Under the pieces are notes generated by a model. The model saw only the letters and a list, made by a program, of their open reading frames with translations. It did not search any database and had not been told where the DNA came from. Positions 7,696-25,429 of a stretch of DNA of 64,000 nucleotides are shown here, piece by piece. The stretch comes from an uncultured Eubacteriales bacterium (lineage in GTDB: Bacteria > Bacillota > Clostridia > Oscillospirales > UBA644): contig CAKSFN010000009.1 in NCBI GenBank assembly GCA_934454405.1, forward strand, positions 30,323 to 94,322. Reading direction: 5' to 3'. Every line of letters begins with the position of its first letter. Within the stretch, counting starts at the first letter, position 1. Position numbers and translations under genes: made by a program.

Positions 7696-7989
7696 GCAAA
7701 TATTTACAAACAAAACCTTTGTCGCGCGTATTCCGCCGCAAAACCCCGAATAAAAGCCTCCGCCGCGCGGTAATACGCCGTATTCGAAGCTTTTTGCAAC
7801 GAAATACATCCGCTTTTCGGACAATGCAAGCCTTTCCGAGCCGTTCCGACCGCAGTTTCGGGCGAATTGTGGGGAAAGACGGAGCATTTTATCGTAAAAT
7901 GGGGCGCATTCCCACGTTGATTTGTTGAAAATAAACAATATCACGCGTTAATATCACGATATATTTGGCAAGAAACTTTGTTAAACCCC

Positions 7990-8018
7990 TTGCAAAAGTG
8001 TTCGATTTATATTATAAT
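7990..8018 (+). promoter_or_regulatory. Sigma-A promoter of the dcw operon (PmraZ)
   Basis: TTGCAA (7990-7995), 17 nt spacer, TATAAT (8013-8018). Confidence 0.7.
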
Positions 8019-8026
8019 ATTGTCAA

Positions 8027-8043
8027 GTGGAGCGAAGGTGGAG
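8027..8043 (+). promoter_or_regulatory. Putative MraZ operator: two direct GTGGAG boxes
   Basis: GTGGAG at 8027-8032 and 8038-8043 (11-bp phasing), immediately downstream of the -10. This resembles the repeated GTGG-type MraZ boxes reported upstream of mraZ in other bacteria. Confidence 0.45.
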
Positions 8044-8105
8044 AAAAAAGGATTGAAATAACACTGCGTTCCCAAAAATATTTGAGGAAACGGAGGCGGA
8101 ACAAT

Positions 8106-8561
8106 ATGCTTTTAATCGGCAGATTCGGTTTGATAGGCAGCTACAATCATACGATAGATTCCAAAAACAGATTGTTCCTGCCCGCAAAGCAGAGAGATTA
8201 TCTCGGTTCGACCGTTATCCTCACAAGAGGTCTTCGCAACTGTCTTTATATGTATACCGCCGAGGGCTGGGAGAACTTCATTTCCGCCATTGAGAACGAC
8301 AACGACTTTATATCCGACGAGGAAACGCTGTATTTCCTCGGTAACGCGCAGGAGGTAGACGTCGATTCTCAGGGAAGAATAACCGTTCCTCAAACGCTTC
8401 GCTCGTTCTTCGGAATAGGCAAGGACGTTACGATAGTCGGCGCGGGACAAAGACTTGAAATCTGGAAGACCGAGGACTGGGAAGCGTTCAACAACGACAA
8501 GAATATCGAAAACAGGATTCTTGCAAACATCAACGAAAAGAAATCTGCGAAAAATGAGTGA
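8106..8561 (+). CDS. mraZ: Transcriptional regulator MraZ
   Basis: MLLIGRFGLIGSYNHTIDSKNRLFLPAKQRD...GRITVPQTLR shows two SpoVT/AbrB-like halves. ATG 8106 follows GGAGG. The longer ORF-track start at 7965 would run through the promoter. Confidence 0.93.
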   Translation: MLLIGRFGLIGSYNHTIDSKNRLFLPAKQRDYLGSTVILTRGLRNCLYMYTAEGWENFISAIENDNDFISDEETLYFLGNAQEVDVDSQGRITVPQTLRSFFGIGKDVTIVGAGQRLEIWKTEDWEAFNNDKNIENRILANINEKKSAKNE

Positions 8562-9483
8562 TTTTGAACATATCCCGGTATTATTCAATCAGACTATCGA
8601 AGGTCTCGCGGTCAAGTCCGACGGAGTTTATGCGGACGGTACCGCCGGCGGAGGAAATCATTCCCGAGCCGTCGGAGAGCGCTTGTCCGATAAAGGAAGG
8701 CTGATCTGCGTTGATCGAGATACAGAGGCTATCGGAGCGTGCAGAGAAAAACTCGCGGGGTTAAAATGCGGTTTGACCCTCTTGCATGCGGACTTCGCAA
8801 GGTTGCCCGAATATCTGCGGAAAAACGAAATAATGCTTGACGGACTGCTGGTGGATCTCGGCGTTTCGTCGTATCAGCTCGACACCGCGGAAAGGGGATT
8901 CTCATATATGGCTGATGCAGAGCTTGATATGAGAATGAACAGGGACGACGGTTTTACTGCGAAGGAGCTCGTGAATACCTATTCAAAAGAAGATATGGAG
9001 AGAATCTTCTTCGAATACGGCGAGGAGAGATACTCGCGCTCCGTGGCTTCGGCAATTGTCGAATACAGAAAATATAAGCCCGTTGAAACAACTCTTGAAC
9101 TTGTCGATATAATCAAAAGCGCGATGCCGCCGAAAGCGCTTCGCGAAAAGCAGCATCCGGCAAAAAGAGTCTTTCAGGCGATAAGGATAGAAGTCAACGA
9201 CGAGCTGAAACAGATAAGCGACCTGCTGGATAACATAATGCCGCAGATGAAAAGCGGCGGCAGAGTTTGCGTTATAACATTTCACAGTCTTGAAGACAGA
9301 ATAGTGAAAACCGCATTCGCAAGAGCGCAGAACCCCTGCACCTGCCCTCCGGATTTTCCGGTTTGCGTCTGCGGAAAAAAACCGCTCGGACGGGCTTTGA
9401 AGCCGATAGTTCCGACGGAAGAAGAGATAAGAGAAAATCCGAGAGCCCGCTCATCGAGGCTCAGAATATTTATAAAGGAATAG
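8554..9483 (+). CDS. rsmH: 16S rRNA (cytosine1402-N4)-methyltransferase RsmH
   Basis: MSDFEHIPVLFNQTIEGL..., GTAGGGNHS, DLGVSSYQLD and FHSLEDRIVK motifs. It overlaps the mraZ stop by 8 nt. Confidence 0.95.
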   Translation: MSDFEHIPVLFNQTIEGLAVKSDGVYADGTAGGGNHSRAVGERLSDKGRLICVDRDTEAIGACREKLAGLKCGLTLLHADFARLPEYLRKNEIMLDGLLVDLGVSSYQLDTAERGFSYMADAELDMRMNRDDGFTAKELVNTYSKEDMERIFFEYGEERYSRSVASAIVEYRKYKPVETTLELVDIIKSAMPPKALREKQHPAKRVFQAIRIEVNDELKQISDLLDNIMPQMKSGGRVCVITFHSLEDRIVKTAFARAQNPCTCPPDFPVCVCGKKPLGRALKPIVPTEEEIRENPRARSSRLRIFIKE

Positions 9484-9484
9484 G

Positions 9485-9889
9485 GTGGACGCATCAATGA
9501 AGAAGAGAACGGGAAAAGACGCTTCGAAAAAGAGTTTCGGCGCGTTTGAAATACTTTCGTGCATCGCAATAGCCGCATTGATGATAATCAGCGTTAACTG
9601 CTATATTAAAAAATATGAAATCAATTATCGCTCCGAGGTGCTTGAAAGAAAATACGGTGAGGCTTACAACGAGGGCGAAAGACTTAAAGTGGAATATCAG
9701 AAGAGAACGGATTACAACAGCGTTTCGGAGTATGCCGAAACCGTTCTCGGTATGAAAAAAATCAGCGACTATCAGGTTATTTATATGCCCGCGACGGAAA
9801 CCGACGAGATGAGAGTCGTTTCTTCCGGCGAAAGCTTTGCGGAAAAGCTCTCAAAGACGTTTTCCATCGTTCTCGAATATTTGAAATAA
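9485..9889 (+). CDS. ftsL: Cell division protein FtsL-like (bitopic, coiled coil)
   Basis: It sits between rsmH and the PBP and has a single TM segment (FEILSCIAIAALMIISVNCYI). The start could be ATG 9497 rather than GTG 9485. Confidence 0.7.
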   Translation: MDASMKKRTGKDASKKSFGAFEILSCIAIAALMIISVNCYIKKYEINYRSEVLERKYGEAYNEGERLKVEYQKRTDYNSVSEYAETVLGMKKISDYQVIYMPATETDEMRVVSSGESFAEKLSKTFSIVLEYLK

Positions 9890-9946
9890 CGTTCGCATAA
9901 ATAATACGGAGAACGCTTCTCGGGAATAATTGACGGGGAATAAAAA

Positions 9947-12163
9947 ATGTCAAGACCTAAGTCAAACAGTAAAACAAGATATGCGGTTATCAGGGTAATA
10001 GCGATGATTGCCCTGATTTGCCTTATAGGAAGACTTTTTTATATACAGATAATAAAACATTCGAAATACGAGCGTATAGCGGTCTCACAGCAGACACAGG
10101 ATATAGCCATCGAGGCGAAAAGAGGCACGATAACGGACAGAGACGGCAATATCCTTGCCATAAGCGCAACCGCATACAAGGTGGTAATGGCTCCGAAGCT
10201 GATAGACAGCGAGGATCTTCGTGAAAAAATATGCGACGGGTTGTCGTCCGCGCTTTCTTCGGACAGAGACAAGATTTATGAAATGACGCTTAAAAATGTG
10301 CAAAGCGTCGAGGTCGCGCGCCGCATAGAAAAGGACGTCGCGGACAAAGTCAACGATTTTATATCGGAAAACAAAGAATATGCCGCAATAATAACCGTTA
10401 CGGAAGACCCGAAAAGGTATTATCCGAACGGAAACACTCTTTCAACGGTTCTCGGGCTTGTCGGGGTTGACAATCAGGGACTTGAAGGCCTCGAATATCT
10501 TTACGACGATTATCTGACGGGAACTGCCGGCAAACTTGTCGCAACAAAAACTTCGATAGGCACGTCGATGCCGTTTTCCTACGAGAGACAGGTTGACCCG
10601 AAGGACGGCTGCACGGTTGAACTGACCGTGGATCTGAAAATGCAGGCGATGCTTGAATCGAAGATAAACGAAGCGAGGGTAGAGCATAACGTTCAGAACA
10701 GGATCGCGGGCATCATTATGGATGTCAACACGGGCGAAATTCTTGCGATGACGTCAAAGCCCGACTTTGACCCCAACGAAAACTATGTGATAAACGACGA
10801 GCTGACGCTCGAAGCTCTTGCCGCCGAATTTGAGGTCGGAAGCTCCGAGTACTACAAGGCGTATAACGAAAAATTCGCGGAATACAAAAAAAACAAGTGT
10901 CTTGAAGCCTACGAGCCGGGCTCTACCTTCAAGATTTTCACCGCGTCTATGGCACTTGAAGAAAAACTTGTCAGCCTTGAGGAAACTTTCTTCTGCAGCG
11001 GGCATCTCGATATCGGCCCGACCCGCGTAAACTGCCACAAAAGAACGGGCCACGGCGCCGAACATCTTAAAGAAGGTCTTGCAAATTCCTGCAACCCCGT
11101 TTTTATGACGCTCGGAATGCGTCTCGGACAGGAAAAATTCTATGATTATCTGACGGTTTTCGGACTTCGCGACAAAACGGGCGTGGGGCTCCCCGGCGAA
11201 CAGACCGGTTACCATCACTCTCTGAAAACGATGACGACTCTCGACCTTGCGGAATCCGCGTTCGGTCAAACGTTCAAAATAACCCCGATGCAGCTTATCA
11301 GCGGCGTTTGCTCCGTCATCAACGGCGGAAATTATATGCAGCCTTATATAGTGCGCAGCATAACGGATTCCGACGGAAATACGGTCGTTTCCAACAAGCC
11401 CACCGTCGTTCGTCAGACAGTTTCGGACGAAACATCCGAGATTATGCGCAAATATCTTGAATTCACGGCGGATTCTTCCGTGAAATCCCACGTTGACGGG
11501 TACCGCATAGGCGGAAAGACCGGTACGTCGCAGAAACTTGATACGAGAGTGGGGCAGGAGGATAACGATAAGCGTATCGCGTCGTATATCTGCTTCGCGC
11601 CCGCGGACGATCCGCAGATAGCGGTTCTCGTCGTTGTCGACGAGCCTGATTCCGAGGTTCAGTACGGTTCTTACATCGCCGCGCCTCTCGGAACATCAAT
11701 AATCGTTCAGGCGCTCAACCGTCTCGGCATCTATTCGACCGCCGAAAACGCGGATAAAACAACCGTTCCGTATGTCGCAGAAATGACGGTTGAGGAGGCA
11801 ACGAAGAAGATTGTCGCTGACGGCCTGCACGTTAAAACGGAAGGCAAAGGCAGCACGGTCGTTGCGCAGCTTCCCGCGGCAAACACCGTGGTTCCTTCGG
11901 GCAGCACCGTCCTGCTTTACACGGAGGACGGCGAACGCGATACGACGACCGTGGTTCCGAATCTCGAGGGCAAAACCCCCGCGGAATGCAATCAGCTGCT
12001 GACAAACAGCGGATTGAATATTGAGATCGTGGGCGGAAACGAAAACGTAACGCCTCTTACGGGCTCCGGCGTAATTGCGTATTATCAAAGCATATCGCCG
12101 GGCGAGACTGTTGAAAAAATGACGACCGTTCAGGTCAAATTCAAAAAAGCGGCTAAAAGCTGA
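9947..12163 (+). CDS. Class B penicillin-binding protein (PBP2B/FtsI/SpoVD type) with two C-terminal PASTA domains
   Basis: 738 aa with an N-terminal TM, the STFK, SCN and KTGT motifs intact, and two PASTA-like repeats at the C-terminus. Confidence 0.93.
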   Translation: MSRPKSNSKTRYAVIRVIAMIALICLIGRLFYIQIIKHSKYERIAVSQQTQDIAIEAKRGTITDRDGNILAISATAYKVVMAPKLIDSEDLREKICDGLSSALSSDRDKIYEMTLKNVQSVEVARRIEKDVADKVNDFISENKEYAAIITVTEDPKRYYPNGNTLSTVLGLVGVDNQGLEGLEYLYDDYLTGTAGKLVATKTSIGTSMPFSYERQVDPKDGCTVELTVDLKMQAMLESKINEARVEHNVQNRIAGIIMDVNTGEILAMTSKPDFDPNENYVINDELTLEALAAEFEVGSSEYYKAYNEKFAEYKKNKCLEAYEPGSTFKIFTASMALEEKLVSLEETFFCSGHLDIGPTRVNCHKRTGHGAEHLKEGLANSCNPVFMTLGMRLGQEKFYDYLTVFGLRDKTGVGLPGEQTGYHHSLKTMTTLDLAESAFGQTFKITPMQLISGVCSVINGGNYMQPYIVRSITDSDGNTVVSNKPTVVRQTVSDETSEIMRKYLEFTADSSVKSHVDGYRIGGKTGTSQKLDTRVGQEDNDKRIASYICFAPADDPQIAVLVVVDEPDSEVQYGSYIAAPLGTSIIVQALNRLGIYSTAENADKTTVPYVAEMTVEEATKKIVADGLHVKTEGKGSTVVAQLPAANTVVPSGSTVLLYTEDGERDTTTVVPNLEGKTPAECNQLLTNSGLNIEIVGGNENVTPLTGSGVIAYYQSISPGETVEKMTTVQVKFKKAAKS

Positions 12164-12261
12164 TTCCGAAACGCGTTTTCGGAAAAGGCTTTGCCCGAAG
12201 CCGGTTTTTTCGGCGAAAAAAACGGAAAGAGAAAGAAAAATAACTTGAAGGGTTGTTTTTA

Positions 12262-13653
12262 ATGAAACTTTCCGAACTTCTCAAAAACGGTGAATTCAAG
12301 GGACGGTATGATCCCGATACGGAAATCGAAAATGTTTGTTCACGCCTCGACGAGTGTGTTGACGGAAGTCTTTTTGTTGCCGTGTGCGGAAGCAGATTCG
12401 ACGCGACCGAGCATATAAAAGAAGCTTTTGAAAAAGGCGCAAAGGCTGTTGTTACCGAAAAAAACGCCGTCGGAGAAAAGGTTTTGCTCTGTCAAAACGC
12501 TCTGTCCGCGCTGTCTGGCATCTGCGCCGCGGAGAGCGGAGACCCTCAAAAGGAGCTGACTCTTGTCGGCTTGACGGGAACGAACGGAAAAACGAGCGCG
12601 TCGTATATCCTTTCACATATAATGAACGGAGCGGGAGTGAAAACCGAGGTCATCGGTTCGGTGAATTTTGAAAACACGACCCCCGAACCGCATATTTTTT
12701 ACCCCGCGCTGAGAGAAATGAAGGACAGGGGAACACAAGCGGTCATCTGCGAGGCGTCTTCGCAGGGGCTTGCCCAGCGCCGTGTTGACCCGTGCCGTTT
12801 TCGCGTGGGTGAATTTCTCAATTTCGGAAGAGATCATCTCGATTATCACAAAACGCTGGCGGAATATTTCGAAAGCAAAAAAAGGCTGAAAGGCCTGTCC
12901 GATATATTTATAGTGAACGGCGACGACGGTCGCACAGCGTCTCTGATTTCCGACGGCGTAAAAACTTTTTCCGCGCTCGGACTTGCGGATTATTCGGCAA
13001 AAAACATTGTTCTGCAAGAGAGCGGAAGTGAGTTTTTGCTTGAACACAAAGGCGAAGAAATTCCGATACGGACGGGACTTATCGGTATGTTTAACATTTA
13101 TAACGCGCTTGCCGCGCTTGCTGCCGCTTCGGAGCTCGGGATACCTCTCACGGACGCCGCAAAGGCGCTTGAAACTCCCGTTGTTATTCCCGGCAGAATG
13201 GAACGCGTTCCCGTAAAAGCGCCGTTTTCGGTGTATGTGGATTACGCGCACACGCCGCAGGCGCTGACTTCCGCGCTTGTCGCATTGAGAAAAATAACCC
13301 GCGGCAGACTTATTGTCGTTTTCGGCTGCGGAGGGGACAGGGATAAAGAAAAACGCCCGATTATGGGCAGAAACGCCGCGAATTTTGCGGATTGCGTCAT
13401 AGTGACTTCCGACAATCCCCGAACGGAGGACCCGGAGGCGATAATCAACGATATCGTCGCAGGCGCCGACAGAACCCGGTTTTCGGTCGTTTCAGACAGG
13501 CGCGCCGCGATAAACCTCGCTCTTTCGAAGGCGCGTGCGGGCGATACGGTTCTGATCGCCGGAAAAGGACACGAGAAATATCAGATAACAGGTAAAAAAA
13601 GATTGCCGTTCGACGACGTTAAGACTGTTGCCGAATATGAATATGAAAGATGA
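12262..13653 (+). CDS. murE: UDP-MurNAc-L-Ala-D-Glu--2,6-diaminopimelate ligase MurE
   Basis: GLTGTNGKTS P-loop and a DNPR motif (the meso-DAP type signature). ATG 12262 is preferred over the TTG at 12253. Confidence 0.93.
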   Translation: MKLSELLKNGEFKGRYDPDTEIENVCSRLDECVDGSLFVAVCGSRFDATEHIKEAFEKGAKAVVTEKNAVGEKVLLCQNALSALSGICAAESGDPQKELTLVGLTGTNGKTSASYILSHIMNGAGVKTEVIGSVNFENTTPEPHIFYPALREMKDRGTQAVICEASSQGLAQRRVDPCRFRVGEFLNFGRDHLDYHKTLAEYFESKKRLKGLSDIFIVNGDDGRTASLISDGVKTFSALGLADYSAKNIVLQESGSEFLLEHKGEEIPIRTGLIGMFNIYNALAALAAASELGIPLTDAAKALETPVVIPGRMERVPVKAPFSVYVDYAHTPQALTSALVALRKITRGRLIVVFGCGGDRDKEKRPIMGRNAANFADCVIVTSDNPRTEDPEAIINDIVAGADRTRFSVVSDRRAAINLALSKARAGDTVLIAGKGHEKYQITGKKRLPFDDVKTVAEYEYER

Positions 13654-13677
13654 AGAGATAAGAACGGAGAAAGAGTT

Positions 13678-15045
13678 ATGTTGCTTTCAGATGTAGGAAA
13701 AATGCTGAATGTCACTTGCAGAGGGGACTGCGAATTTGACGGTTTTGCGATAGATTCCCGCGCCGTCAAGAGGGGGAATATGTTCGTATGTCTTCCCGGA
13801 GCACGGGTTGACGGTCACGATTTTGCGGCGATGGCTGAAGAAAACGGCGCCGCCTGCTTTCTTTGCGAAAGACCTCTCGACACTTCGCTTCCGTGCTGCA
13901 TCGTTCCCGATTCTCTCAAAGGACTTCAGGATCTCGGAAGGGCATACCGTCTTGCTCTCGGCGTAAAGGTCGTGGCGGTCACGGGCAGCGTGGGAAAGAC
14001 CACGACAAAAGAATATATTTCTTCCGTTTTGAGCCGCAGATACGGAACGCACAAGACAGAGGGCAACAAAAACAGCGAAACGGGAGTTCCGCTGACGCTG
14101 CTTGCCGTTTCTCCCGAGGACGAGGTCGTCGTTACCGAAATGGGAATGTCCGCAAAGGGCGAGATCTCCGTTCTGACGGATATTGCCCGTCCCGACGTCG
14201 CGGTCATCACCAATATCGGCGTTTCTCACATCGAGCATCTCGGCTCTCAGGAAAACATAATGCTTGCGAAGCTCGAAATTCTTGAGGGGCTTTCGAAAAA
14301 CGGAACGCTTATTCTCAATTACGATGACGAATATCTCCGCCACGCATATAACGACCTGTTGCTCGGAAAAATTCCGCAGAAGATAATCCGTTACGGTATA
14401 AACAATCCCGATTGCGATGTTGTCGCCTCCGAGATAGTTATGGAGGACAACAGCCTTCGCTTCTGTGTCAAAACGCCCGAAGGCGATATGACCGTCATAA
14501 TGCCCTGCGAGGGAGTGCATAATGTTTATAATTCGCTTGCCGCCGTTTCCGTTGGACTCTGTATGGGCGTTTCGCTTGAAGATATCCGCGAGGGACTTGC
14601 CTCGTTCAAGGGCATTCCTCTCCGCCAGCAGACATACGTGCGCGACGGGCTGAACATAATCGAAGACTGCTACAACGCCAGCCCTTCTTCCATGAAGGCG
14701 GGGCTTGACGTTCTTCGCCGCAAAAACGGCAGAAAAATCGCGGTTCTCGGCGATATGCTCGAGCTCGGTATTTTCTCCGATGAAATGCACGAAAAAGTCG
14801 GCGCGATGCTCGGCGGAATAGACGCTCTTATCGCGTTCGGACATTTCAACGACAGTTACATTGCAGGTGCAAAAAACGCGGGCGTTGCGCCCGAAAACTG
14901 CTATTCGTGCGAAAATAACGAAGAAGCGGCTGTCATACTTTCAAAGATTGCAAAAGACGGCGATTATATCCTTATAAAGGCGAGCCGCGGTATGAGCGGT
15001 GAAAAAATCGCCGAAAAACTTTTTGAGATAAAGGAACAAAAATGA
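13678..15045 (+). CDS. murF: UDP-MurNAc-tripeptide--D-alanyl-D-alanine ligase MurF
   Basis: 455 aa with AVTGSVGKTTTKE, a Mur ligase central and C-terminal domain pattern, and dcw position. Confidence 0.93.
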   Translation: MLLSDVGKMLNVTCRGDCEFDGFAIDSRAVKRGNMFVCLPGARVDGHDFAAMAEENGAACFLCERPLDTSLPCCIVPDSLKGLQDLGRAYRLALGVKVVAVTGSVGKTTTKEYISSVLSRRYGTHKTEGNKNSETGVPLTLLAVSPEDEVVVTEMGMSAKGEISVLTDIARPDVAVITNIGVSHIEHLGSQENIMLAKLEILEGLSKNGTLILNYDDEYLRHAYNDLLLGKIPQKIIRYGINNPDCDVVASEIVMEDNSLRFCVKTPEGDMTVIMPCEGVHNVYNSLAAVSVGLCMGVSLEDIREGLASFKGIPLRQQTYVRDGLNIIEDCYNASPSSMKAGLDVLRRKNGRKIAVLGDMLELGIFSDEMHEKVGAMLGGIDALIAFGHFNDSYIAGAKNAGVAPENCYSCENNEEAAVILSKIAKDGDYILIKASRGMSGEKIAEKLFEIKEQK

Positions 15046-16040
15046 CTTTTTCTCTGTCGGCATCATCTCTTACGGCAATTTCCGTTTCATTCGTTTTCTG
15101 CGTTTTGATTTGCTTTCTGCTTCTGCGTCCCGCGGAGCGGGTTATGTCGCGCCGCAAGATTTCCGTTGTCGAATATCCTTCGTGGCGCAAACGCGCAAAC
15201 GATATTCCTCCCGTCGGCGGAGTGGCAGTCATCGCTTCGGCGTCGCTCGGCTTCCTGCTCGCTGCGGTTACGGGAGGCGGCATCGTTTCGGAATACGTCT
15301 TTTTGCTCGTCGTCGCGGTCCTGTTTGCCTCGATAGGGTTCACGGACGATATGCTGACGCTCACTCAAAACAGAAGATTTTCGTTGCCGCGCTTCGTCGG
15401 CTCCGCTCTCAGGGCGGTTTTGGCGGTCGGTTTCGCCTTCTACTCATATAACCGCAACGGCGGCTATGTTTCATTTTTCGTTTTTTCCGACGGTGCGGAT
15501 TTAGGCGTCTTCTATGTTCCGATCGCCGCTCTCGTCATTCTGTTTTTTACATTTTCCGCGCGGATCACAAACGGCTCGGACGGTTTAAACGCCGTGACCT
15601 GCATCCCCGTTTTTGCCTATCTTTCGCTTCTTGCGGTCGGACGTCAGGGAAGCGGCGACGCAAACGGAGCCTTTGTTTCCTTTTCGCTCCTCGGCGCCGT
15701 TCTCGGTTTTCTGATTTTCGGAAAAAGCCCCGCCCGTATTTTTGAAGGGCGCTCGGGAACGTCGTTCTGCGGCGCCTGCGCCGTTTTGCTCTGTTTTTTG
15801 ATGAAATGCCCGTCGATAATTTTTGTCGTCGGCTTTATATGGCTCGTTCAGGGCTTAAGTTTTTTTCTTTCCCGCGCGGTGTACTTCATCACCCGCGGCA
15901 GACACAGGCTTTTGCCCGTCGCTCCGCTCGATTCTTTCCTGCGCAGCGCGGGAATTTCTGAAAAAACCGTTATTTTCACATATTTTGCGATAGGCGTCAT
16001 TTTTGCCGCGGTCGCGTATATTCTGACCGGAGGTCTTTGA
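15042..16040 (+). CDS. mraY: MraY-family (PNPT) polytopic membrane protein in the mraY slot, with atypical or degenerate catalytic motifs
   Basis: 332 aa. ATGA overlap with murF and TGATG overlap with ftsW. It is collinear with MraY (ANDIPPVGG, GFTDDM, NGSDGLNA), but EGRSGT replaces GDxGS and PLDSFLR replaces PLHHHxE. See findings. Confidence 0.7.
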   Translation: MTFSLSASSLTAISVSFVFCVLICFLLLRPAERVMSRRKISVVEYPSWRKRANDIPPVGGVAVIASASLGFLLAAVTGGGIVSEYVFLLVVAVLFASIGFTDDMLTLTQNRRFSLPRFVGSALRAVLAVGFAFYSYNRNGGYVSFFVFSDGADLGVFYVPIAALVILFFTFSARITNGSDGLNAVTCIPVFAYLSLLAVGRQGSGDANGAFVSFSLLGAVLGFLIFGKSPARIFEGRSGTSFCGACAVLLCFLMKCPSIIFVVGFIWLVQGLSFFLSRAVYFITRGRHRLLPVAPLDSFLRSAGISEKTVIFTYFAIGVIFAAVAYILTGGL

Positions 16041-17242
16041 TGAAAGACAAAGCGCAGCAGAAAAAAAATCCGTTGCTCCGAAAAAAAGGATTGCCCATGT
16101 TCGACATTCCTTTCCTTGTCGGAGTTTTCGCGCTGCTTTTTACGGGGCTTGCCATGCTTTTTTCCGCGGGATACGCGGACGCGCTGAACCGTTACGCAGA
16201 CAGCTACCATTATATCAAAAGTCAGTTGTTCGCCGTTATGTTAGGCCTTATAACAATGCTTGTCGCTTCTTTTATCTCTTATAAATTCTACCGACGGTTC
16301 GCATGGCTTTTTTACGGCGTCTGCGTTGTGCTTCTCATCGCCGTTTTGATATTCGGAAAAGGAGAGCAGAAGCGCTGGCTCAACATCGGCTTTCAGTTCC
16401 AGCCCTCCGAACTTGCCAAGGTCGCCGTCGTGATGGCGCTTGCCGACTATATCGCGCGCAACCGCGACAATATGAAGCAGTTTGTGAAAGGCATAATCGT
16501 TCCCTGCATAATCTGGGGCGTTCCGTGTCTTCTCGTCGCTGTTGAAACGCACCTTTCGGGCGCGATACTTATCGCCGCGATAGGTATAATTATGATGATT
16601 GCCGGAGGCTGCCGCCTTGTCTTTCTTGCCGCCCCTGCCGCAGGCGCGGGCGTTCTGGGAACCGTGCTTGCTTTCAGCATTCCTTATATGAAGGCAAGAA
16701 TAGACACATGGCTCAACCCCGAAACGGACTTGCTCGGCGACGGCTGGCAGGTCTATCAGTCGCTGACCACCATCGGCTCGGGCGGTCTGTTCGGCTTCGG
16801 TTACGGAAAATCGAGACAAAAATATCTTTATATGTCGGAGCCGCAGAACGACTTCATCTTTTCTATCGTCTGCGAAGAGCTCGGCTGGATAGGTGCCGTG
16901 TTCGTTATCGCTCTGTTCGCATTTTTCATCTGGCGCGGCATTTACATCGCCATGCATGCACCGAACACTTTTTCATCCCTTATCGTTATGGGAATCATCG
17001 GCAAAACCGCCGTTCAGGTCATCTTTAACATCGCGGTCGTTACAGGCTCCGTTCCCGTTACGGGAGTTCCTCTTCCGTTTTTCAGCTTCGGAGGCACGGC
17101 TTTGACCGTTCTGCTGGCGGAGATAGGCCTTGTCTTGTATATTTCACGGTTCGCTACCGTTGAGAAGGGAAGCGAGCCCGCGCAGGAGAACAAAACGAGC
17201 GGCGCGGAAGAAGCGGCGACTGCGGAGGAGGGTAATATATGA
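16040..17242 (+). CDS. ftsW: SEDS family peptidoglycan glycosyltransferase FtsW/SpoVE
   Basis: QPSELAKV, GSGGLFGFGYGKSRQKYLYMSEPQNDFIFSIVCEELG and TGVPLPFFSFGGT motifs, with GGAGG 6 nt upstream of ATG 16040. Confidence 0.92.
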   Translation: MKDKAQQKKNPLLRKKGLPMFDIPFLVGVFALLFTGLAMLFSAGYADALNRYADSYHYIKSQLFAVMLGLITMLVASFISYKFYRRFAWLFYGVCVVLLIAVLIFGKGEQKRWLNIGFQFQPSELAKVAVVMALADYIARNRDNMKQFVKGIIVPCIIWGVPCLLVAVETHLSGAILIAAIGIIMMIAGGCRLVFLAAPAAGAGVLGTVLAFSIPYMKARIDTWLNPETDLLGDGWQVYQSLTTIGSGGLFGFGYGKSRQKYLYMSEPQNDFIFSIVCEELGWIGAVFVIALFAFFIWRGIYIAMHAPNTFSSLIVMGIIGKTAVQVIFNIAVVTGSVPVTGVPLPFFSFGGTALTVLLAEIGLVLYISRFATVEKGSEPAQENKTSGAEEAATAEEGNI

Positions 17243-18351
17243 ATTATCTTATTGCCTGCGGAGGCACTTCCGGACATATAAATCCCGCGATAGCGATAGC
17301 GGATGAGCTTCGCCGCCGCGACCCGGACGCAAAATTTATTTTTATCGGAATGAAGCGCAATCTCGAGTCTGAGCTTGTTCCGAGAGCCGGATATGAAATA
17401 AGGTTTATCGAAACCTCCGGTCTCAGCCGCGAGAAAAGCTTTGCCGGCGTGAGACACAACATTCGGATGGTAAAAAAATTTCTCGCTTCAAAAAGAGCGG
17501 TAAAAAAGATAATCGACGGGTTTCATCCGAACGTCGCGATAGGAACGGGCGGATACGTTTCCGCTCCGGCGATACGCGCCGCCTGCGAAAAACATATTCC
17601 CACGGTCATTCACGAGCAGAACGCCTTTGCAGGCGTGGCAACGAAGATGCTCGCGGGCAGAGTTGACAGAATACTGCTGAGTTTCAAGCTTGCAAAGCCG
17701 ATACAGGGCGTTGAAGAAAAAACGCGTCTTGTCGGAAATCCCGTCAGACGGGCGTTTTTGGAGCTTGACAGAAAAACCGCGCGCGCGGAGCTCGGGATTT
17801 CCGAAAACGAAATGGTAGTCCTTTCATGCGGCGGAAGCCTCGGCGCAACAACGCTGAACGAGGCGTTTGTCGGCTTCGCAAAAAAGGTTGCCGCCGACGG
17901 CACAATGAGCCTTTATCACGGCGCGTCACGGGATTATCAGGCGGTCTGTGACGCGTTGAAGGACGTTGAAAACAGAGAAAAAATACACGTTTTTGAGTAT
18001 ATATACAATATGCCGGAGCTTATGGCTGCGGCGGATCTTATCGTTTCCCGTTCCGGCGCAACATCTCTGACCGAAATCTCGGCGCTCGGACGCGCAAGCA
18101 TTCTCGTGCCGTCTCCGAACGTGACCGAAAACCACCAGTATTTCAACGCAAAAACTTTCAGCGACGCAGGCGCGGCTGTTCTGCTTGAGGAAAAGGATCT
18201 TTCGCCCGAAAGCCTTTACGAAGCCGTAAACGGTGTGCTTTTCGATTCGGATAAACTGAATGCCATGGAACGCGCCGCAAAATCGCTGTTCAACGAAAGT
18301 TCCGTTTCCGATATTGCGGACGAGATTTTTGCCGTCGCGAAAAAGAAATAA
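17239..18351 (+). CDS. murG: Undecaprenyldiphospho-muramoylpentapeptide beta-N-acetylglucosaminyltransferase MurG
   Basis: ACGGTSGHINPAIAIA, HEQNAF, GGSLGA and SRSGATSLTE motifs. ATGA overlap with ftsW. Confidence 0.95.
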   Translation: MNYLIACGGTSGHINPAIAIADELRRRDPDAKFIFIGMKRNLESELVPRAGYEIRFIETSGLSREKSFAGVRHNIRMVKKFLASKRAVKKIIDGFHPNVAIGTGGYVSAPAIRAACEKHIPTVIHEQNAFAGVATKMLAGRVDRILLSFKLAKPIQGVEEKTRLVGNPVRRAFLELDRKTARAELGISENEMVVLSCGGSLGATTLNEAFVGFAKKVAADGTMSLYHGASRDYQAVCDALKDVENREKIHVFEYIYNMPELMAAADLIVSRSGATSLTEISALGRASILVPSPNVTENHQYFNAKTFSDAGAAVLLEEKDLSPESLYEAVNGVLFDSDKLNAMERAAKSLFNESSVSDIADEIFAVAKKK

Positions 18352-18463
18352 CGCGCCTTCTCCGAATTGACGACCGATGGCGGACAACCTGTTTTTTCCG
18401 CACCGTCTCTGCGTTTTCGCATATTATGTTAATGTCGAAAACTATGAGAGGAAAGAAAAAACG

Positions 18464-19726
18464 ATGTCAAGACTTGTAATAAACGGGGGAAAACCTCTTT
18501 GCGGCGTGGTTCGCGTTCAGGGCGCGAAAAACAGCGTTCTTCCGATATTGGCTGCTTCGCTTCTCGCCGAAAACCCCTGTGTGATCTCGAACTGTCCGCA
18601 TATCAGCGATGCCGACACCGCCGTTGAAATCCTCAACGCTCTCGGAGTTCGCGCGGAAAGGTATTCGGACAGAATTGAAACGGACGCGTCAAACGCCTTC
18701 AAATGCGTTATCCCCGACAGCCTTATGCGAAAAATGCGGTCCTCGATCGTGTTTCTCGGCGCGATAGTCTCAAAATGCGGCAGAGCGCGCGTCAGTTTTC
18801 CCGGCGGCTGCGATATCGGCTGCCGTCCGATAGATCTTCACATATCTTCGCTTGAAAAAATGAACATATCCGTCGTCGGCAAAAGCGGTTATCTCGAATG
18901 CAGAACGGACGGAATAAAAGGCGCGGAAATAAATCTTTCTTTTCCGAGTGTCGGCGCAACGGAGAACATTATGCTCGCCGCCTGCCGCGCGGACGGAAAA
19001 ACCGTTATCGAAAACGCCGCGAGAGAGCCCGAGATAGTTGACCTTCAAAACTTTATCAACGCCATGGGCGGAAGGGTCAGCGGCGCGGGAACATCGAGAA
19101 TAGAAGTGCTCGGCGTCAGACGTCTGCACGGCGCGACATATCGGATCATTCCGGACAGAATCGTGGCTTCAACCTATCTCTGCGCCGTTGCCGCAAGCCG
19201 CGGCTGCGCGTTGTTGAAGGACGTCAGACCGGACGATTTTTCGTCCGTGACGGCGCTTCTGCGCGATGCCGGCTGTAAAATCTCCGTTTACGGGGACAGC
19301 GTTTCCGTCGATTGCGAAAAGACGGAGAGAATACGGGGCGTTGATTCCGTTCGGACGATGCCGTATCCCGGTTTTCCGACGGACGCGGGTTCTCCTTTCG
19401 TTGCCCTGATGTCACTTGCGAAGGGCTCTACGGTTTTTGTCGAAACCGTTTTCGAAAACAGATTCAAATATGTCGGAGAACTGCTCCGTATGGGCGCGGA
19501 TATAAAAACCGAAGGCAGGGTAGCCGTTATCGACGGCGCGGAGAAACTGTTCGGAACAAGCGTCGAGGCTCACGACCTTCGCGGCGGAGCCGCGCTTTGC
19601 GTCGCCGCCGTTGCTGCGGAGGGCACCACCGTGATAAATCACGCGGAATACATACTTCGCGGTTACGAACATATAGAAAAAGATCTTCGCGATCTCGGCG
19701 CGGACATCGAATTTTTTGAGGACTGA
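18464..19726 (+). CDS. murA: UDP-N-acetylglucosamine 1-carboxyvinyltransferase MurA
   Basis: MSRLVINGGKPLCGVVRVQGAKNSVLPILAASLL, with the catalytic Cys context PGGCDIGCRPIDLH. The ORF-track N-terminal extension (18377) lacks an RBS. Confidence 0.93.
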   Translation: MSRLVINGGKPLCGVVRVQGAKNSVLPILAASLLAENPCVISNCPHISDADTAVEILNALGVRAERYSDRIETDASNAFKCVIPDSLMRKMRSSIVFLGAIVSKCGRARVSFPGGCDIGCRPIDLHISSLEKMNISVVGKSGYLECRTDGIKGAEINLSFPSVGATENIMLAACRADGKTVIENAAREPEIVDLQNFINAMGGRVSGAGTSRIEVLGVRRLHGATYRIIPDRIVASTYLCAVAASRGCALLKDVRPDDFSSVTALLRDAGCKISVYGDSVSVDCEKTERIRGVDSVRTMPYPGFPTDAGSPFVALMSLAKGSTVFVETVFENRFKYVGELLRMGADIKTEGRVAVIDGAEKLFGTSVEAHDLRGGAALCVAAVAAEGTTVINHAEYILRGYEHIEKDLRDLGADIEFFED

Positions 19727-19749
19727 AAATAAAAGAAAGGGGAGTTTCG

Positions 19750-20658
19750 ATGAAAGAGCAAAAACGCTTCGAAGACGAGGCTTCGGAAGAAGAGCTTTCC
19801 TCGGCGCAAATCAGAAGCCGCCGAAAAGCGGCGCGAAAAAAACGCATACTTCGCAACAGGCTGATCTTTGTCGGAATTCTTCTTTTGATTGCCGGAGTGA
19901 TTGTTTTTCGCGTTTGCGTCGTCGCAAAAACAATAAACGTGACGAACGAAACCCCTTATTCCGACGAGCAGCTTTTGGCGGCGATGGACGAGGGAAAGGG
20001 AACTTTTCTGTTCTCCTTCAATGCGGAAAGTATCGCCGCGAAGCTTAAAACGGTCTATCCGTATGTCGGCTCCGTTGAAGTTAAAAAGCATTTTCCGACA
20101 ACAGTAGATATCTCCTTCCGCGTTGCCGAAAGGGCGTTTGCGTTTGAAAAGGACGGAAATTTTGTTTATACGGACGCGGGGCTTCGCGTTCTTGAAATCA
20201 CGAAAACGCCCGACAGCTCCGTTTTGACCGTGACAGGCGCGGATATCGGAAAATATGAAAAAGGAAAAACGCTGGACACGGAAGTTTTTATTTACGGCGA
20301 TTTTATCTCGGATTTGAAAAACCGGGCAGATAAAAACGGTCTGGGTGTCGTGACAAAGATAGATTTGACCAAGAAATACAGGATAGCGTTTCTGCTGAAC
20401 GGCAAAACGACCGTTATTCTCGGCGATTTTTCCGATTTGGACAAGAAGTTCGACACCCTTAAATATATCGTCGGGGAAAACGATCCCTCCGTTATCGCAA
20501 CGATAAACGTCAAAAATTACAAACGCGGAAAATACTCCCTCGGCTCGGAAATATTTTCGGCCGAAGCCGTTGTCGAGCCGTCTTCGGCCGCAACCGAATC
20601 GACGGAACAGCCTTCCGTCCCCGACGGTACATCATACAATTCGGACGTCGAACCGTAA
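19750..20658 (+). CDS. ftsQ: Cell division protein FtsQ/DivIB
   Basis: Basic N-terminus, single TM (LIFVGILLLIAGVIVF), then POTRA-like and FtsQ-type beta domains. It lies directly upstream of ftsZ. Confidence 0.85.
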   Translation: MKEQKRFEDEASEEELSSAQIRSRRKAARKKRILRNRLIFVGILLLIAGVIVFRVCVVAKTINVTNETPYSDEQLLAAMDEGKGTFLFSFNAESIAAKLKTVYPYVGSVEVKKHFPTTVDISFRVAERAFAFEKDGNFVYTDAGLRVLEITKTPDSSVLTVTGADIGKYEKGKTLDTEVFIYGDFISDLKNRADKNGLGVVTKIDLTKKYRIAFLLNGKTTVILGDFSDLDKKFDTLKYIVGENDPSVIATINVKNYKRGKYSLGSEIFSAEAVVEPSSAATESTEQPSVPDGTSYNSDVEP

Positions 20659-20774
20659 TTTCGGAAATAAAGTAAGTTTTTCCCCGAAAATAGTCAGTCG
20701 CTTCGCTTCTTGTGACAAAAAACGAAATTTTTTTAGATTTTATGTCGCGCAAAGCAGAAAATCGATGAAAAGTG

Positions 20775-20803
20775 TTGACTATCTCGGTCAAATATGCTAT
20801 ATT
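20775..20803 (+). promoter_or_regulatory. Sigma-A promoter immediately upstream of ftsZ
   Basis: TTGACT (20775-20780), 17 nt spacer, TATATT (20798-20803), with TGc extended -10. Confidence 0.65.
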
Positions 20804-20844
20804 ATATTCGTATATAACCGTACATAATGAAAGGATGTAGACAA

Positions 20845-21996
20845 ATGGCATTCAAAAGTTTGGAAGATAAAACGCTGGTCAATATCAAGGTTATCGGAGT
20901 CGGCGGCGGCGGAAACAACGCCGTTGACGGAATGATTCAGTCCGAAGTCAGAGACGTTGAATTCATTGATATCAACACCGATTGCCAACAGCTTGAAAAG
21001 CGTTCTCTCGCTCCCGTCAAGATTCCCATAGGCGAAAAGATTACCCGCGGTTTCGGCGCAGGCGCAGATCCCGAGGTCGGCAGAAAAGCCGCCGAGGAAA
21101 GCCGTGACGCCATCGCGTCCGCCATCAAAGGCGCGGATATGATTTTCCTGACTGCCGGCATGGGCGGCGGAACCGGTACGGGTGCTTCTCCTCTCGTTGC
21201 GCAGATCGCAAAGGAATCCGGTATCCTGACGGTTGCCATAGTAACGAGACCGTTCAATTTTGAAGGAAAAACCAAGATAGAAAAAGCGGAAAAAGGTATT
21301 GAAGACCTTCTCAAACAGGTTGACACTCTTGTTGTTATCCCGAACGAGAACCTCAAGCTTGTTTCCGAAAGCAGAGTTACGATGCTCAACGCGTTCAAGA
21401 TTGCGGACAATGTTCTTAAAGAAGGCGTTGAGTCCATCACCACGCTTATTCAGAGCCAGGGTATAATCAACCTTGACTTCAACGATATCACCGCGATCCT
21501 TAAAGATGCGGGCAAGGCTCACTGGTGCGTTCAGTCCGCAAAAGGCAAGGATAAGGCTGAAACCGTTGCAAATGCGGTTATTCAGTCCCCGCTGCTTGAA
21601 TCTTCCATCAAGGGCGCGAGAGGCGTTATCCTTTACTTTAATGCCGACACCGAAGTTACGATGGAAGACATCGAGCTTGCAGCGCAGATAATCAGAGAAA
21701 ACGCCGCTCCCGACGCGAACATTATCTGGGGCGTTAACCTTGACGATACGCTTGAGGACGAGCTTCAGGTGACCGTTATCGCAACTCGTTTTGAGGATGA
21801 GGACAAGTCTTTCGGAACACAGCCCGTAACGAACGCCGCTTATATCGCGCCTTCCAGAGTGGCTCCCGAAATTCCCGCTCCGGCGGCTCCGGTAAACGCC
21901 GCACCCGTCGCTCCCGCGGCTCCCGTTGCTCCCGTTTCGACGGACGACGATGACGAGTTTCTTAAACTGCTCAACGATATAACCAAGGGCAACTGA
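20845..21996 (+). CDS. ftsZ: Cell division GTPase FtsZ
   Basis: IKVIGVGGGGNNAV, GMGGGTGTGASP and NLDFNDI motifs, with a Pro/Ala-rich linker and a C-terminal DDDDEFLKLL peptide. ATG 20845 (AAAGGA upstream) is preferred over 20827. Confidence 0.97.
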   Translation: MAFKSLEDKTLVNIKVIGVGGGGNNAVDGMIQSEVRDVEFIDINTDCQQLEKRSLAPVKIPIGEKITRGFGAGADPEVGRKAAEESRDAIASAIKGADMIFLTAGMGGGTGTGASPLVAQIAKESGILTVAIVTRPFNFEGKTKIEKAEKGIEDLLKQVDTLVVIPNENLKLVSESRVTMLNAFKIADNVLKEGVESITTLIQSQGIINLDFNDITAILKDAGKAHWCVQSAKGKDKAETVANAVIQSPLLESSIKGARGVILYFNADTEVTMEDIELAAQIIRENAAPDANIIWGVNLDDTLEDELQVTVIATRFEDEDKSFGTQPVTNAAYIAPSRVAPEIPAPAAPVNAAPVAPAAPVAPVSTDDDDEFLKLLNDITKGN

Positions 21997-22051
21997 CACA
22001 AAGGACTTTGACCGGGTCCGAATAATTCAGCGTTTGAAATTTAATATACGG

Positions 22052-23960: not shown

Positions 23961-23972
23961 ACAAAGCGTCCT

Positions 23973-25187: not shown

Positions 25188-25224
25188 AAAACTGCCCTCT
25201 TTCATTGTTTTTTATTATATTGTT

Positions 25225-25253
25225 ATCTTATCATTTATTATATGTTTTGTCAA
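25225..25253 (-). promoter_or_regulatory. Candidate promoter for the Fe-ADH/propeller operon
   Basis: Reverse strand reads TTGACA (25253-25248), 17 nt spacer, TAAGAT (25230-25225). Its -35 forms a 9-bp inverted repeat with the opposing promoter's -35. Confidence 0.4.
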
Positions 25254-25272
25254 GAGATATTCGCTTTTTTTC

Positions 25273-25301
25273 TTGACAAACGGGTTATTATATTGTATAA
25301 T
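25273..25301 (+). promoter_or_regulatory. Consensus sigma-A promoter for the ALDH-transketolase-ADH operon
   Basis: TTGACA (25273-25278), 17 nt spacer, TATAAT (25296-25301). Confidence 0.75.
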
Positions 25302-25429
25302 GTAAAGTAGAAAAAAATGTCGCGCGCAGACCGTTTGCGCCGACCGAAGGGCAATTCCCGAATACCGTCGAAAATGCGGATTTCGGGCGTTGTTTTAAGA
25401 AAAATACAATAACAGAGAGGTGTCCGATT

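Follow-up and report, generated by a model that had tools for sequence, protein, structure and literature searches.

Described MraY enzymes and related systems

To our knowledge, MraY is regarded as universal, essential, and single-copy in wall-building bacteria, and every characterised PNPT enzyme needs the Mg2+-binding Asp. MraY is a major antibiotic target, and lipid I is the substrate consumed by MurG. WecA, TagO, WbpL, and eukaryotic GPT/DPAGT1 share a PF00953-type fold with the protein described here; unlike that protein, they depend on a Mg2+-binding Asp. In MraY (A. aeolicus numbering), the essential residues D117, D118, and D265 form the DDD motif, with D265 as the Mg2+ ligand, and both a uracil pocket (K70, G194, L195, D196, F262) and a uridine-adjacent pocket (T75, N190, D193, G264) have been defined (PMC6606608). 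The HHH motif of loop E has the form PxHHHxExxG (PMC5039524). Substitutions of D265 and H324 abolish the activity of characterised MraYs (PMC6606608, PMC4790310).

In Clostridia that form endospores, cell-wall genes of the dcw cluster may no longer serve their canonical vegetative function, as described for SpoVD and SpoVE of C. difficile (PMC10693644). The DCW1 cluster, which is found in most Clostridia, is listed without murD (Garcia et al. 2021, PMC8136486). Within the literature that we searched, no pseudo-MraY has been described.

Locus and gene order

In the 64-kb stretch of DNA that we analysed (the window), a gene at 15042..16040 (+ strand) encodes a MraY-like protein of 332 aa; based on the ORF call, PF00953, TIGR00445, AF2, and Foldseek, this protein has the full MraY fold, in which the catalytic and substrate sites are degenerate. 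The gene lies within a dcw cluster (7965..21996, +) with the order mraZ-rsmH-ftsL?-pbp(SpoVD-like)-murE-murF-X-ftsW-murG-murA-ftsQ-ftsZ, where X is the MraY-like gene and the putative ftsL is an ORF of ~134 aa without a Pfam match that is named by position alone. This location beside murF and ftsW is the one expected of MraY, and both the location and the gene order of the cluster recur at four other loci (L001, L002, L003, and L018). The upstream neighbour, murF (13678..15045, +), is canonical (TIGR01143 score of 395.5, above 288.6), and its stop codon overlaps the start of the MraY-like gene in an ATGA (15042..15045, +), with AAGGAA upstream at 15031-15036. At the other end, a TGATG overlap (16038..16042, +) joins the stop codon of the MraY-like gene to the ATG of an ftsW/spoVE-type SEDS gene (16040..17242, +), with GGAGG at 16029-16033 and with murD absent between the two genes; murG (17239..18351, +), also canonical, follows (279.7, above 250.25; dN/dS 0.04-0.11). 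The MraY-like gene is co-transcribed with murF and ftsW, and it is probably translationally coupled to both.

These observations agree with a preliminary description of the locus, which had placed the ORF in the mraY slot and noted both overlaps. That description had also held that the divergence does not reflect general decay, given that MurE, MurF, FtsW, MurG, MurA, and both PBPs keep their signature motifs. Consistent with this claim, MurE, MurF, MurG, MurA, RsmH, and FtsZ of the window score above their NCBIfam cutoffs, and FtsW, which is slightly under its equivalog cutoff (320 bits vs 337.5), matches PF01098 with 294 bits. The two PBPs are a class B PBP inside the dcw cluster (9947-12163) and a class A PBP (39638-42022, - strand). 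An Rfam search of the window returned zero matches and zero rRNA.

Family assignment and predicted structure

A Pfam profile search aligned the MraY-like protein to PF00953 with 61.9 bits (gathering score 27) and to no other Pfam family; among NCBIfam models, it matched mraY-type models alone, below cutoff. Against the mraY model TIGR00445, the protein scored 105.7 bits, which is under the equivalog cutoff of 192.05. Scores within the variant family were 105.7, 105, 91.3, and 85.3 bits, compared to 240-251 bits for canonical MraYs of Clostridia (P0164, 240 bits; P0162, 251 bits). The WecA model TIGR02380 gave zero match for the variant and weak matches for canonical P0162 and P0164; lacking both a model match and the Asp equivalent to D265, the protein is not a WecA/TagO-type PNPT. 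The sequence clearly derives from MraY, as the only models to match it were those for MraY and its archaeal counterpart. A defence or phage origin was considered and rejected, based on zero matches in PADLOC or PHROGs.

[quoted passage not shown] Using Foldseek with this model, we found that the best 24 matches were MraY only, with TM scores of 0.76-0.86 and a maximum of 0.86 for 9b70_A; DPAGT1 structures were the next matches (TM 0.64-0.73). The variant is the same as described MraYs (TIGR00445, PF00953; 4J72, 5JNQ, 9B70) in fold, topology, length, and murF/ftsW slot, whereas it differs from them in its sub-cutoff score, in weakly conserved loops C and D, in the residues described below, and in new RQGxGD and AY(I/V)L..G motifs.

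Catalytic and substrate-site residues

We assigned residues by phmmer alignment to the solved MraYs 5jnq, 9zno, and 4j72 and by MAFFT alignment with 13 canonical MraYs; sequence, profile, and multiple alignments concur on these assignments. The variant retains D117, D118, G194, D196, F262, and G264. Replaced positions are K70 (A52 in the variant), T75 (P57), K121 (T106), N190 (R174), D193 (N177), L195 (S179), N255 (G227), D265 (R237), H324 (D297), H325 (S298), H326 (F299), and E328 (R301), and about 12-13 of 18 functional MraY positions are replaced in total.

The retained DD pair is D102-D103 (15345..15350, +), which corresponds to D117/D118 in all alignments, as the preliminary description had stated; the third member of the DDD motif is absent, with R237 at the position of D265. 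Shortly downstream of the DD pair, a family-specific conserved cytoplasmic motif, TLTQNRRF (residues 106-113; 15357..15380, +), stands in place of the K121...K133 stretch. Loop C reads RITNGSD (residues 174-180; 15561..15581, +), in which N190 is replaced by R, D193 by N, and L195 by S, whereas G194 and D196 are kept. The hand alignment in the preliminary description had correctly read the first Asn of this loop (N190) as Arg; however, its register was off by one, as the Asp that becomes Asn is D193 and the last Asp (D196) is retained. In loop D, which reads GKSPARIFEGR (residues 227-237; 15720..15752, +), N255 is replaced by G and the Mg2+ ligand D265 by R237, with F262 and G264 kept; the replacement of the Mg-binding Asp by Arg held in both the phmmer and the MAFFT alignment, and profile alignment did not restore an Asp. 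In place of PxHHHxExxG, loop E reads P-L-D-S-F-L-R-S-A-G, and its segment PLDSFLR (residues 295-301; 15924..15944, +) has D-S-F instead of HHH and R instead of E328, confirming the reported loss of the His triad and the Glu. Neither nucleoside pocket is complete: the uracil pocket has K70 changed to A and L195 to S, and the uridine-adjacent pocket has T75 changed to P, N190 to R, and D193 to N, with G264 kept.

Conservation and divergence of the variant family

The variant is intact and in the same slot in five lineages, with 79-32% identity, which answers in the affirmative the question of whether it is conserved in related genomes. Intact copies occupy the mraY slot at L001, L002, L003, L018, L019-21, and L023, and the substitution pattern recurs at about ten further loci (L001-L004; L018-L023 without L022). 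Because these loci come from independent assemblies, the substitutions are not attributable to chance or sequencing error. Metagenomic 90% clusters of the variant contain as many as 249 and 165 sequences. The reading frame, at 328-333 codons, is unbroken in all lineages, even at 32% identity, and the start/stop overlaps with neighbour genes are preserved. The dN/dS of 0.10-0.17 indicates purifying selection, albeit as a rough value with saturated dS (>1). The variant family is monophyletic, with a mean distance to canonical MraYs of 2.24 vs 1.24 among canonical MraYs, and the clade that carries it is a small group of spore-forming human-gut Clostridia.

Comparison within the family was based on a small sample of seven sequences that span three deep branches. 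Position 265 is R, H, K, R, K, H, or N across the seven members, i.e., basic in six and N in P0016. Position 324 is acidic in 7/7, position 328 is Arg in 6/7, and the DD pair is kept in 6/7, with K-D in its place in P0014. Position 325 is S, T, V, A, or N, and position 326 is F, C, Y, or H. In P0014, D117 is replaced by K, G194 by N, and D196 by S; in P0016, D196 is replaced by E and F262 by D. The replacements at 324, 265, and 328 are thus patterned, a feature that runs counter to a pseudoenzyme and that may reflect a working remodelled site.

The variant is the fastest-evolving gene of its operon, with 32% identity where FtsW has 69% and MurF has 75%. Its divergence is 1.5-2.6 times that of FtsW, compared to 0.98 for a canonical control pair. 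The notion that MraY is normally the slowest gene was rejected, as controls show that canonical MraY evolves at about the rate of FtsW and faster than the Mur ligases; for this reason, we state the rate as a 1.5-2.6-fold excess over FtsW.

As judged from sequence identity, the variant family is less constrained in cytoplasmic loops C and D, and more constrained in the outer loop, TM10, and the C-terminus, than canonical MraYs are. Identity in loop C falls from 88% among canonical MraYs to 47% in the variant family, and identity in loop D falls from 58% to 17%, while cytoplasmic loops B and E are still ~50% conserved, which also weighs against a pseudoenzyme. Conversely, identity rises from 3% to 78% in the outer TM6-7 loop, from 29% to 52% in TM10, and from 9% to 62% in the C-terminal tail. 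The extracytoplasmic TM6-TM7 loop contains RQGSGD (residues 201-206; 15642..15659, +); the motif RQ[GS]xGD is present in 7/7 family members, with R, Q, G205, and D206 invariant, and is without counterpart in canonical MraY. At the outer end of TM10, the C-terminal AYILTGGL (residues 325-332; 16014..16037, +) is conserved in the family and variable in canonical MraY.

murD and the search for a second mraY

No murD, second MraY-family ORF, or third Mur-ligase ORF was found in the 64-kb window, in agreement with the earlier report that murD is missing, and none of the three was found in the 10 kb past either end of the window (84 kb covered in all). The preliminary description had treated the absent murD as a linked anomaly; this part does not stand. 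At L005 (GCA_045649405.1), in a Clostridia genome, a canonical MraY (240 bits, TIGR00445) is immediately followed by ftsW-murG-murA-ftsQ-ftsZ without murD. Based on this arrangement and on the DCW1 cluster of Garcia et al. 2021, a murD located elsewhere is ordinary for Clostridia, and its absence therefore gives no ground to expect a relocated mraY-murD pair. That a second canonical mraY was not found within 84 kb is, for its part, an observation that weighs against a pseudoenzyme.

Several candidates were rejected. P0162 (L008) was considered as the relocated mraY-murD pair: it is a canonical MraY (251 bits), it and the variant have the GDANG word in common, and murD (325 bits) comes immediately after it. 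However, its relatives (L009, L011-13) have a compact dcw cluster and belong to another lineage, with GC of 0.54-0.58 vs 0.48 and with identities to the window of 53% for FtsZ, 38% for MurE, and 29% for MraZ. P0011, the best canonical word-match, comes from a distant organism (38% MurF identity, GC 0.54) in which the murE-murF-mraY cluster is of the ordinary kind. The apparent MraY-like/CoaBC fusions P0009 and P0010 are end-of-contig assembly chimeras. A metagenome scan by FtsW alignment for intermediate lineages or canonical-plus-variant tandems identified just close same-variant relatives or unrelated loci.

Possible functions of the MraY-like protein

We consider it probable, with some room for doubt, that in this small group of spore-forming gut Clostridia the positional descendant of the dcw mraY encodes a non-catalytic MraY-fold membrane protein (pseudo-MraY). 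Essential catalytic residues are lost from a protein with the homology and fold of an enzyme family, and the intact frames, the dN/dS, and the new invariant motifs point to purifying selection rather than to a pseudogene. The preliminary description had proposed a pseudoenzyme or scaffold on the one hand and a highly unusual translocase on the other; we favour the former, because of purifying selection, accelerated divergence, varying catalytic positions, and constraint on the outer face, and regard the latter as less favoured.

A pseudo-MraY would be incapable of lipid I synthesis by the known mechanism, and it may be kept as a subunit with a structural or regulatory role in the membrane machinery for peptidoglycan synthesis and division. 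It could, for instance, be a platform on which MurF, MurG, FtsW, or the class B PBP docks, or it could pair with an active MraY as the inactive member. Putative working surfaces are the RQGxGD loop on the outer side, TM10 together with the AY(I/V)L..G of the C-terminus, and the remodelled basic cytoplasmic loops, and the remodelled site, in which 265 is basic, 324 is acidic, and D117/D118 are mostly kept, may bind C55-P or lipid I/II without turnover. Given that strong constraint acts on MurE, MurF, MurG, MurA, FtsW, and the PBPs, all of them canonical, the pathway is in use and needs lipid I. Because MurG consumes lipid I, it must be made; its source would be another, active MraY encoded at a different site in the genome.

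An unlikely alternative, which nonetheless merits consideration, is a different activity on a polyprenyl-phosphate- or nucleotide-linked substrate, whether as another transferase, in lipid carrier handling or flipping, or as a C55-P/lipid II sensor. The retained MraY fold and lipid groove, the patterned site remodelling with charge inversion at 265, 324, and 328, and the new invariant motifs, one of them on the outer face, would all fit such a role. Yet the variant lacks the Asp on which all characterised PNPT enzymes depend, it matches no model of another family (Pfam, NCBIfam, PADLOC, PHROGs), and its remodelled residues are not the same in all three deep branches.

We find it rather improbable that the protein is the sole MraY and retains phospho-MurNAc-pentapeptide translocase activity through a remodelled site that may not need Mg2+, in which a basic residue at 265 would replace the metal charge, D117/D118 would act on C55-P, and the acidic residue at 324 would replace His. 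The protein occupies the exact ancestral mraY slot, coupled to murF and ftsW and with none other within 84 kb; it is under purifying selection, and it has the DD pair in 6/7 members, G194, D196, and F262 in most, a basic 265 in 6/7, and an acidic 324 in 7/7. Against this, characterised MraYs become inactive on substitution of D265 or H324 (PMC6606608, PMC4790310), K70, T75, K121, N190, and N255 are all lost, and key positions vary, with N at 265 in P0016 and with P0014 lacking D117, G194, and D196. Moreover, an essential lone enzyme is unlikely to evolve fastest in its operon (32% vs 69% for FtsW and 75% for MurF), and loops C and D, the most conserved in real MraYs, are the least conserved in the variant. 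A related scenario, to which we give slightly less weight still, is that these organisms have no canonical MraY: either the remodelled protein would make lipid I metal-independently, with the basic 265 standing in for Mg2+, or a non-homologous enzyme would make lipid I while the MraY fold serves as an essential non-catalytic divisome subunit via its new extracytoplasmic motif.

It is very improbable that the protein is a decoy that shields the real MraY from phage lysis proteins (phiX174 E) or uridyl-nucleoside antibiotics. The protein has the shape of MraY, presumably without the activity, and phage protein E and nucleoside antibiotics do target MraY (PMC5039524, PMC6606608). However, conservation does not extend to the uridine and uridine-adjacent pockets in which the antibiotics bind, where K70, T75, N190, and D193 have been replaced (muraymycin binding is abolished by D193N; PMC6606608); PADLOC and PHROGs are without match, and the gene is located in a core dcw operon rather than a defence island. 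A gene without function, either an incipient pseudogene in decay or an artefact of annotation or assembly, as the lost catalytic residues and accelerated divergence might suggest, is effectively refuted by the 328-333-codon frame that is intact in every lineage to 32% identity, the dN/dS of 0.10-0.17 (dS saturated), the confident fold prediction, the new invariant motifs, the hundreds of independent metagenomic copies, and the preserved neighbour overlaps.

If the protein is indeed a pseudo-MraY, it would be the first described, conserved and selected in the ancestral dcw slot, and the MraY fold would have a structural or regulatory role in peptidoglycan synthesis or division that is separable from catalysis. 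The question raised is where variant-bearing organisms make lipid I, and if a second mraY is absent, the assumed mechanistic requirements of the PNPT family would be overturned. Annotation based on synteny or Pfam will mislabel the variant as mraY in Clostridia that are abundant in the human gut, Hadza and UHGG MAGs among them.

Like described pseudoenzymes, the variant has lost catalytic residues but is kept by selection, presumably because it serves as a structural subunit; unlike them, it sits at the locus where the enzyme itself was originally encoded and not at that of a duplicate. SpoVD and SpoVE of C. difficile offer a precedent for a role shift of dcw genes, although those enzymes stay catalytically active, whereas in the variant the catalytic apparatus itself is lost. 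The PBP and SEDS proteins of the window score about equally against SpoVD/SpoVE and FtsI/FtsW models, and the window also contains SpoIID and SpoIIP sporulation genes.

An MraY homolog lacking catalytic residues

The MraY-like gene (15042-16040, +) encodes a 332-aa protein that passes Pfam PF00953 (61.9 bits) and scores 105.7 bits on the TIGR00445 mraY equivalog model, under the cutoff of 192; canonical Clostridia MraYs score 240-251 bits on this model. The AlphaFold2 model is confident (pLDDT 85.2, pTM 0.86), and the top Foldseek matches in the PDB are all MraY (TM up to 0.86), with human GPT ranking next. We assigned residues (A. aeolicus numbering) with HMMER, against solved MraY structures from C. 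bolteae, Hydrogenivirga, and A. aeolicus, and with MAFFT, against 13 canonical MraYs; the two methods agree at every key position. D117, D118, G194, D196, F262, and G264 are kept; the replaced residues are K70 (to A), T75 (P), K121 (T), N190 (R), D193 (N), L195 (S), N255 (G), D265 (R), H324 (D), H325 (S), H326 (F), and E328 (R).

In MraY, D117, D118, and D265 form the essential DDD motif, with Mg2+ coordinated by D265; the uracil pocket is built from K70, G194, L195, D196, and F262, and the uridine-adjacent pocket from T75, N190, D193, and G264 (PMC6606608). The loop E motif PxHHHxExxG is specific to MraY, and the catalytic role of H324 is backed by mutational studies (PMC5039524, PMC4790310). 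The preliminary description had reported a protein at the mraY position without the catalytic Asp and His triad, and both alignments (D265 to R, HHH to DSF) and the predicted fold bear this out. Its reading of loop C was correct in the gain of an Asn but not in register, as D193 becomes Asn and D196 is kept; this was the only slip of note. Because the neighboring enzymes score above curated cutoffs, its statement that the substitutions do not reflect general decay also holds.

Genomic context and distribution

The host cluster is a typical clostridial dcw cluster. Upstream lie mraZ (within 7965-8561), rsmH (8455-9483), a ~134-aa ORF with no Pfam match that is named ftsL by position only (9485-9889), a SpoVD/FtsI-type class B PBP gene (9947-12163), murE (12253-13653), and the adjoining murF (13678-15045); downstream lie the adjoining ftsW/spoVE-type SEDS gene (16040-17242), murG (17239-18351), murA (18377-19726), ftsQ (19750-20658), and ftsZ (20827-21996). 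The murF stop and the MraY-like start overlap as ATGA, and the MraY-like stop and the ftsW ATG overlap as TGATG, with GGAGG 7 nt 5' of this ATG. These overlaps with both neighbors embed the gene in the operon, and its translation is probably coupled to that of murF and ftsW.

For the class B PBP, the top-scoring model is SpoVD (565 bits, under the 688 cutoff), and the SEDS protein gets nearly equal scores from the FtsW (320 bits) and SpoVE (317 bits) models, each under its cutoff; by analogy with C. difficile (PMC10693644), the cluster may be partly sporulation-specialized. No ftsA lies in the 170-nt gap between ftsQ and ftsZ (20658-20827), and ftsQ is also followed directly by ftsZ in L001-L003, three other loci with the MraY-like gene, and in L005, a locus with a canonical MraY.

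The same substitutions recur in full-length relatives with 79, 69, 69, and 69% identity. A profile search run exhaustively over 1.84 billion representatives identified only two deeper members, P0014 (48% identical) and P0016 (32%), below which lies a continuum of canonical MraYs. The gene occupies the slot between murF and ftsW in every context recovered (L001, L002, L003, L018, L019-21, and L023), and the wider synteny is also unchanged wherever longer flanks were recovered. At 90% clustering, membership reaches 249 and 165 sequences, and the contigs are as long as 669 kb. The family is monophyletic, with a mean Kimura distance to canonical MraYs of 2.24, versus 1.24 among canonical MraYs in a bacteria-wide sample. 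The MraY-like protein thus represents a conserved family rather than an accident, limited to a small clade yet abundant in human-gut metagenomes.

Two 396-aa database entries (P0009 and P0010) fuse the N-terminal ~107 aa of a UMGS964-type MraY-like protein with C-terminal portions of two distinct CoaBC enzymes at an identical junction (GFADDMLT|TT). In L007:1-2215 (ENA ERZ827437 NODE_414), the 1.3 kb of dcw origin (84% identity to window 14018-15358) lies at the extreme end of a 62 kb contig. We rejected these entries as real fusions; they appear to be assembly chimeras that arose via a short shared coding k-mer.

Rate and pattern of evolution

Approximate dN/dS values, for which dS is saturated, indicate purifying selection on the MraY-like gene (0.10-0.17; murF, 0.06-0.08; ftsW, 0.05-0.09; murG, 0.04-0.11). 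Protein identities to the window for MurF, the MraY-like protein, FtsW, and MurG are 92, 79, 92, and 92% in L001; 86, 69, 87, and 81% in L002; 78, 50, 66, and 81% in L018; and 75, 32, 69, and 70% in L003, against which the MraY-like gene is the fastest-evolving of the cluster. Its divergence is 1.5-2.6-fold that of FtsW. We state the rate relative to FtsW because canonical MraY and FtsW diverge equally in a control pair (ratio 0.98) and, in another canonical lineage, Mur ligases are somewhat more conserved than MraY.

At similar overall divergence (MraY-like family, 42%; canonical MraYs, 37%), the regional pattern of constraint is inverted. Regional identities for canonical MraYs versus the MraY-like family are 88% versus 47% in cytoplasmic loop C and 58% versus 17% in cytoplasmic loop D, but 3% versus 78% in the outer TM6-TM7 loop (RQ[GS]xGD), 29% versus 52% in TM10, and 9% versus 62% in the C-terminal tail. 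The catalytic positions also vary among family members: the residues are R, H, K, R, K, H, or N at 265, S, T, V, A, or N at 325, and F, C, Y, or H at 326. In addition, P0014 has lost D117 (to K), G194 (to N), and D196 (to S), and P0016 carries D196 to E and F262 to D.

Within the cluster, only ftsQ and the MraY-like gene evolve faster than murE (MurE identity 79, 68, and 53% to L001, L002, and L003; MurF 92, 86, and 75%). MurE still exceeds its equivalog cutoff (450 vs 373 bits), and its speed may reflect changed stem-peptide chemistry or relaxation linked to that of the neighboring gene.

Possible function

The best-supported reading of these sequences is a pseudoenzyme derived from MraY; pseudoenzymes as such are already known, and our full-text literature searches turned up no account of an MraY homolog without catalytic activity. 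Within the membrane machinery for peptidoglycan synthesis and division, the protein is probably a subunit that has the MraY fold but is not catalytic. The known mechanism requires D265-Mg2+ and residues of loops E and C, and their loss, with replacements that are not fixed, favors a non-catalytic role. Selection has kept the fold, reading frame, and operon position, and new invariant motifs have appeared, one on the outer face. MraY is dimeric (PMC5039524, PMC4790310), and an MraY-MurG interaction has been reported (PMC5039524). The protein could serve as a docking platform for MurF, MurG, FtsW, or a PBP, or alternatively, itself inactive, could pair with an active MraY; its remodeled site might still bind lipid phosphate. 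As MurG and its companion enzymes are canonical and under tight constraint, the organism must produce lipid I, and we infer that an active MraY is encoded elsewhere in the genome.

That the protein has gained a new activity toward a lipid-linked substrate appears unlikely. Slightly less likely still is a remodeled, possibly metal-independent sole translocase; in its favor, residue 324 is acidic in all seven members sampled, residue 265 is basic in six of them, and no second copy was found in the window or in the 10 kb on either side, but the lost residues are those on which the known mechanism depends. A decoy is improbable, and a decaying gene, given the selection on fold and frame, is the least credible.

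Absence of murD

The preliminary description had also linked a missing murD to the unusual MraY. The absence stands, as murD was found neither in the slot before ftsW nor in the 64-kb window or the 10 kb on either side; the link does not. In Garcia et al. 2021 (PMC8136486), the DCW1 cluster of most Clostridia is given without murD, and L005, with its fully canonical MraY, has mraY-ftsW-murG-murA-ftsQ-ftsZ without murD. The lack is thus normal for the class and unrelated to the degenerate MraY; in locus L006, murD is present at that position.

In a large GC-rich gut Clostridia lineage (L009, L011, L012, and L013, also L008 and L010; GC 54-58%), represented by 786 MraY clusters below 1e-90, the dcw cluster is unusually compact, ordered tig-clpP-clpX-lon-engB ... 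mraZ-orf200-murE-like ligase-mraY-murD-ftsQ-ftsA-ftsZ. It does not contain rsmH, PBP, murF, ftsW, or murG, which must be elsewhere.

Organism and remainder of the window

The organism is a spore-forming member of Clostridia; the window also encodes a class A PBP, a MurJ/SpoVB-like protein, a SpoIID-like protein, and SpoIIP. Its relatives are human-gut MAGs labeled "uncultured Clostridiales" (UMGS964, MGYG-HGUT-01271), and the same species was found in Hadza gut assemblies. A search of 1-64000 against Rfam yielded no family at gathering score, which means that tRNAs, rRNAs, riboswitches, and leaders all went undetected. Four very long antisense ORFs of 385-704 aa (23196-25310, +; 25250-26806, -; 13687-14844, -; 20797-21999, -) lie opposite genes for Fe-ADH and a Mal s 1-like protein, aldehyde dehydrogenase, murF, and ftsZ; the two searched against Pfam gave no match, and all four are probably codon-bias shadows that encode nothing.
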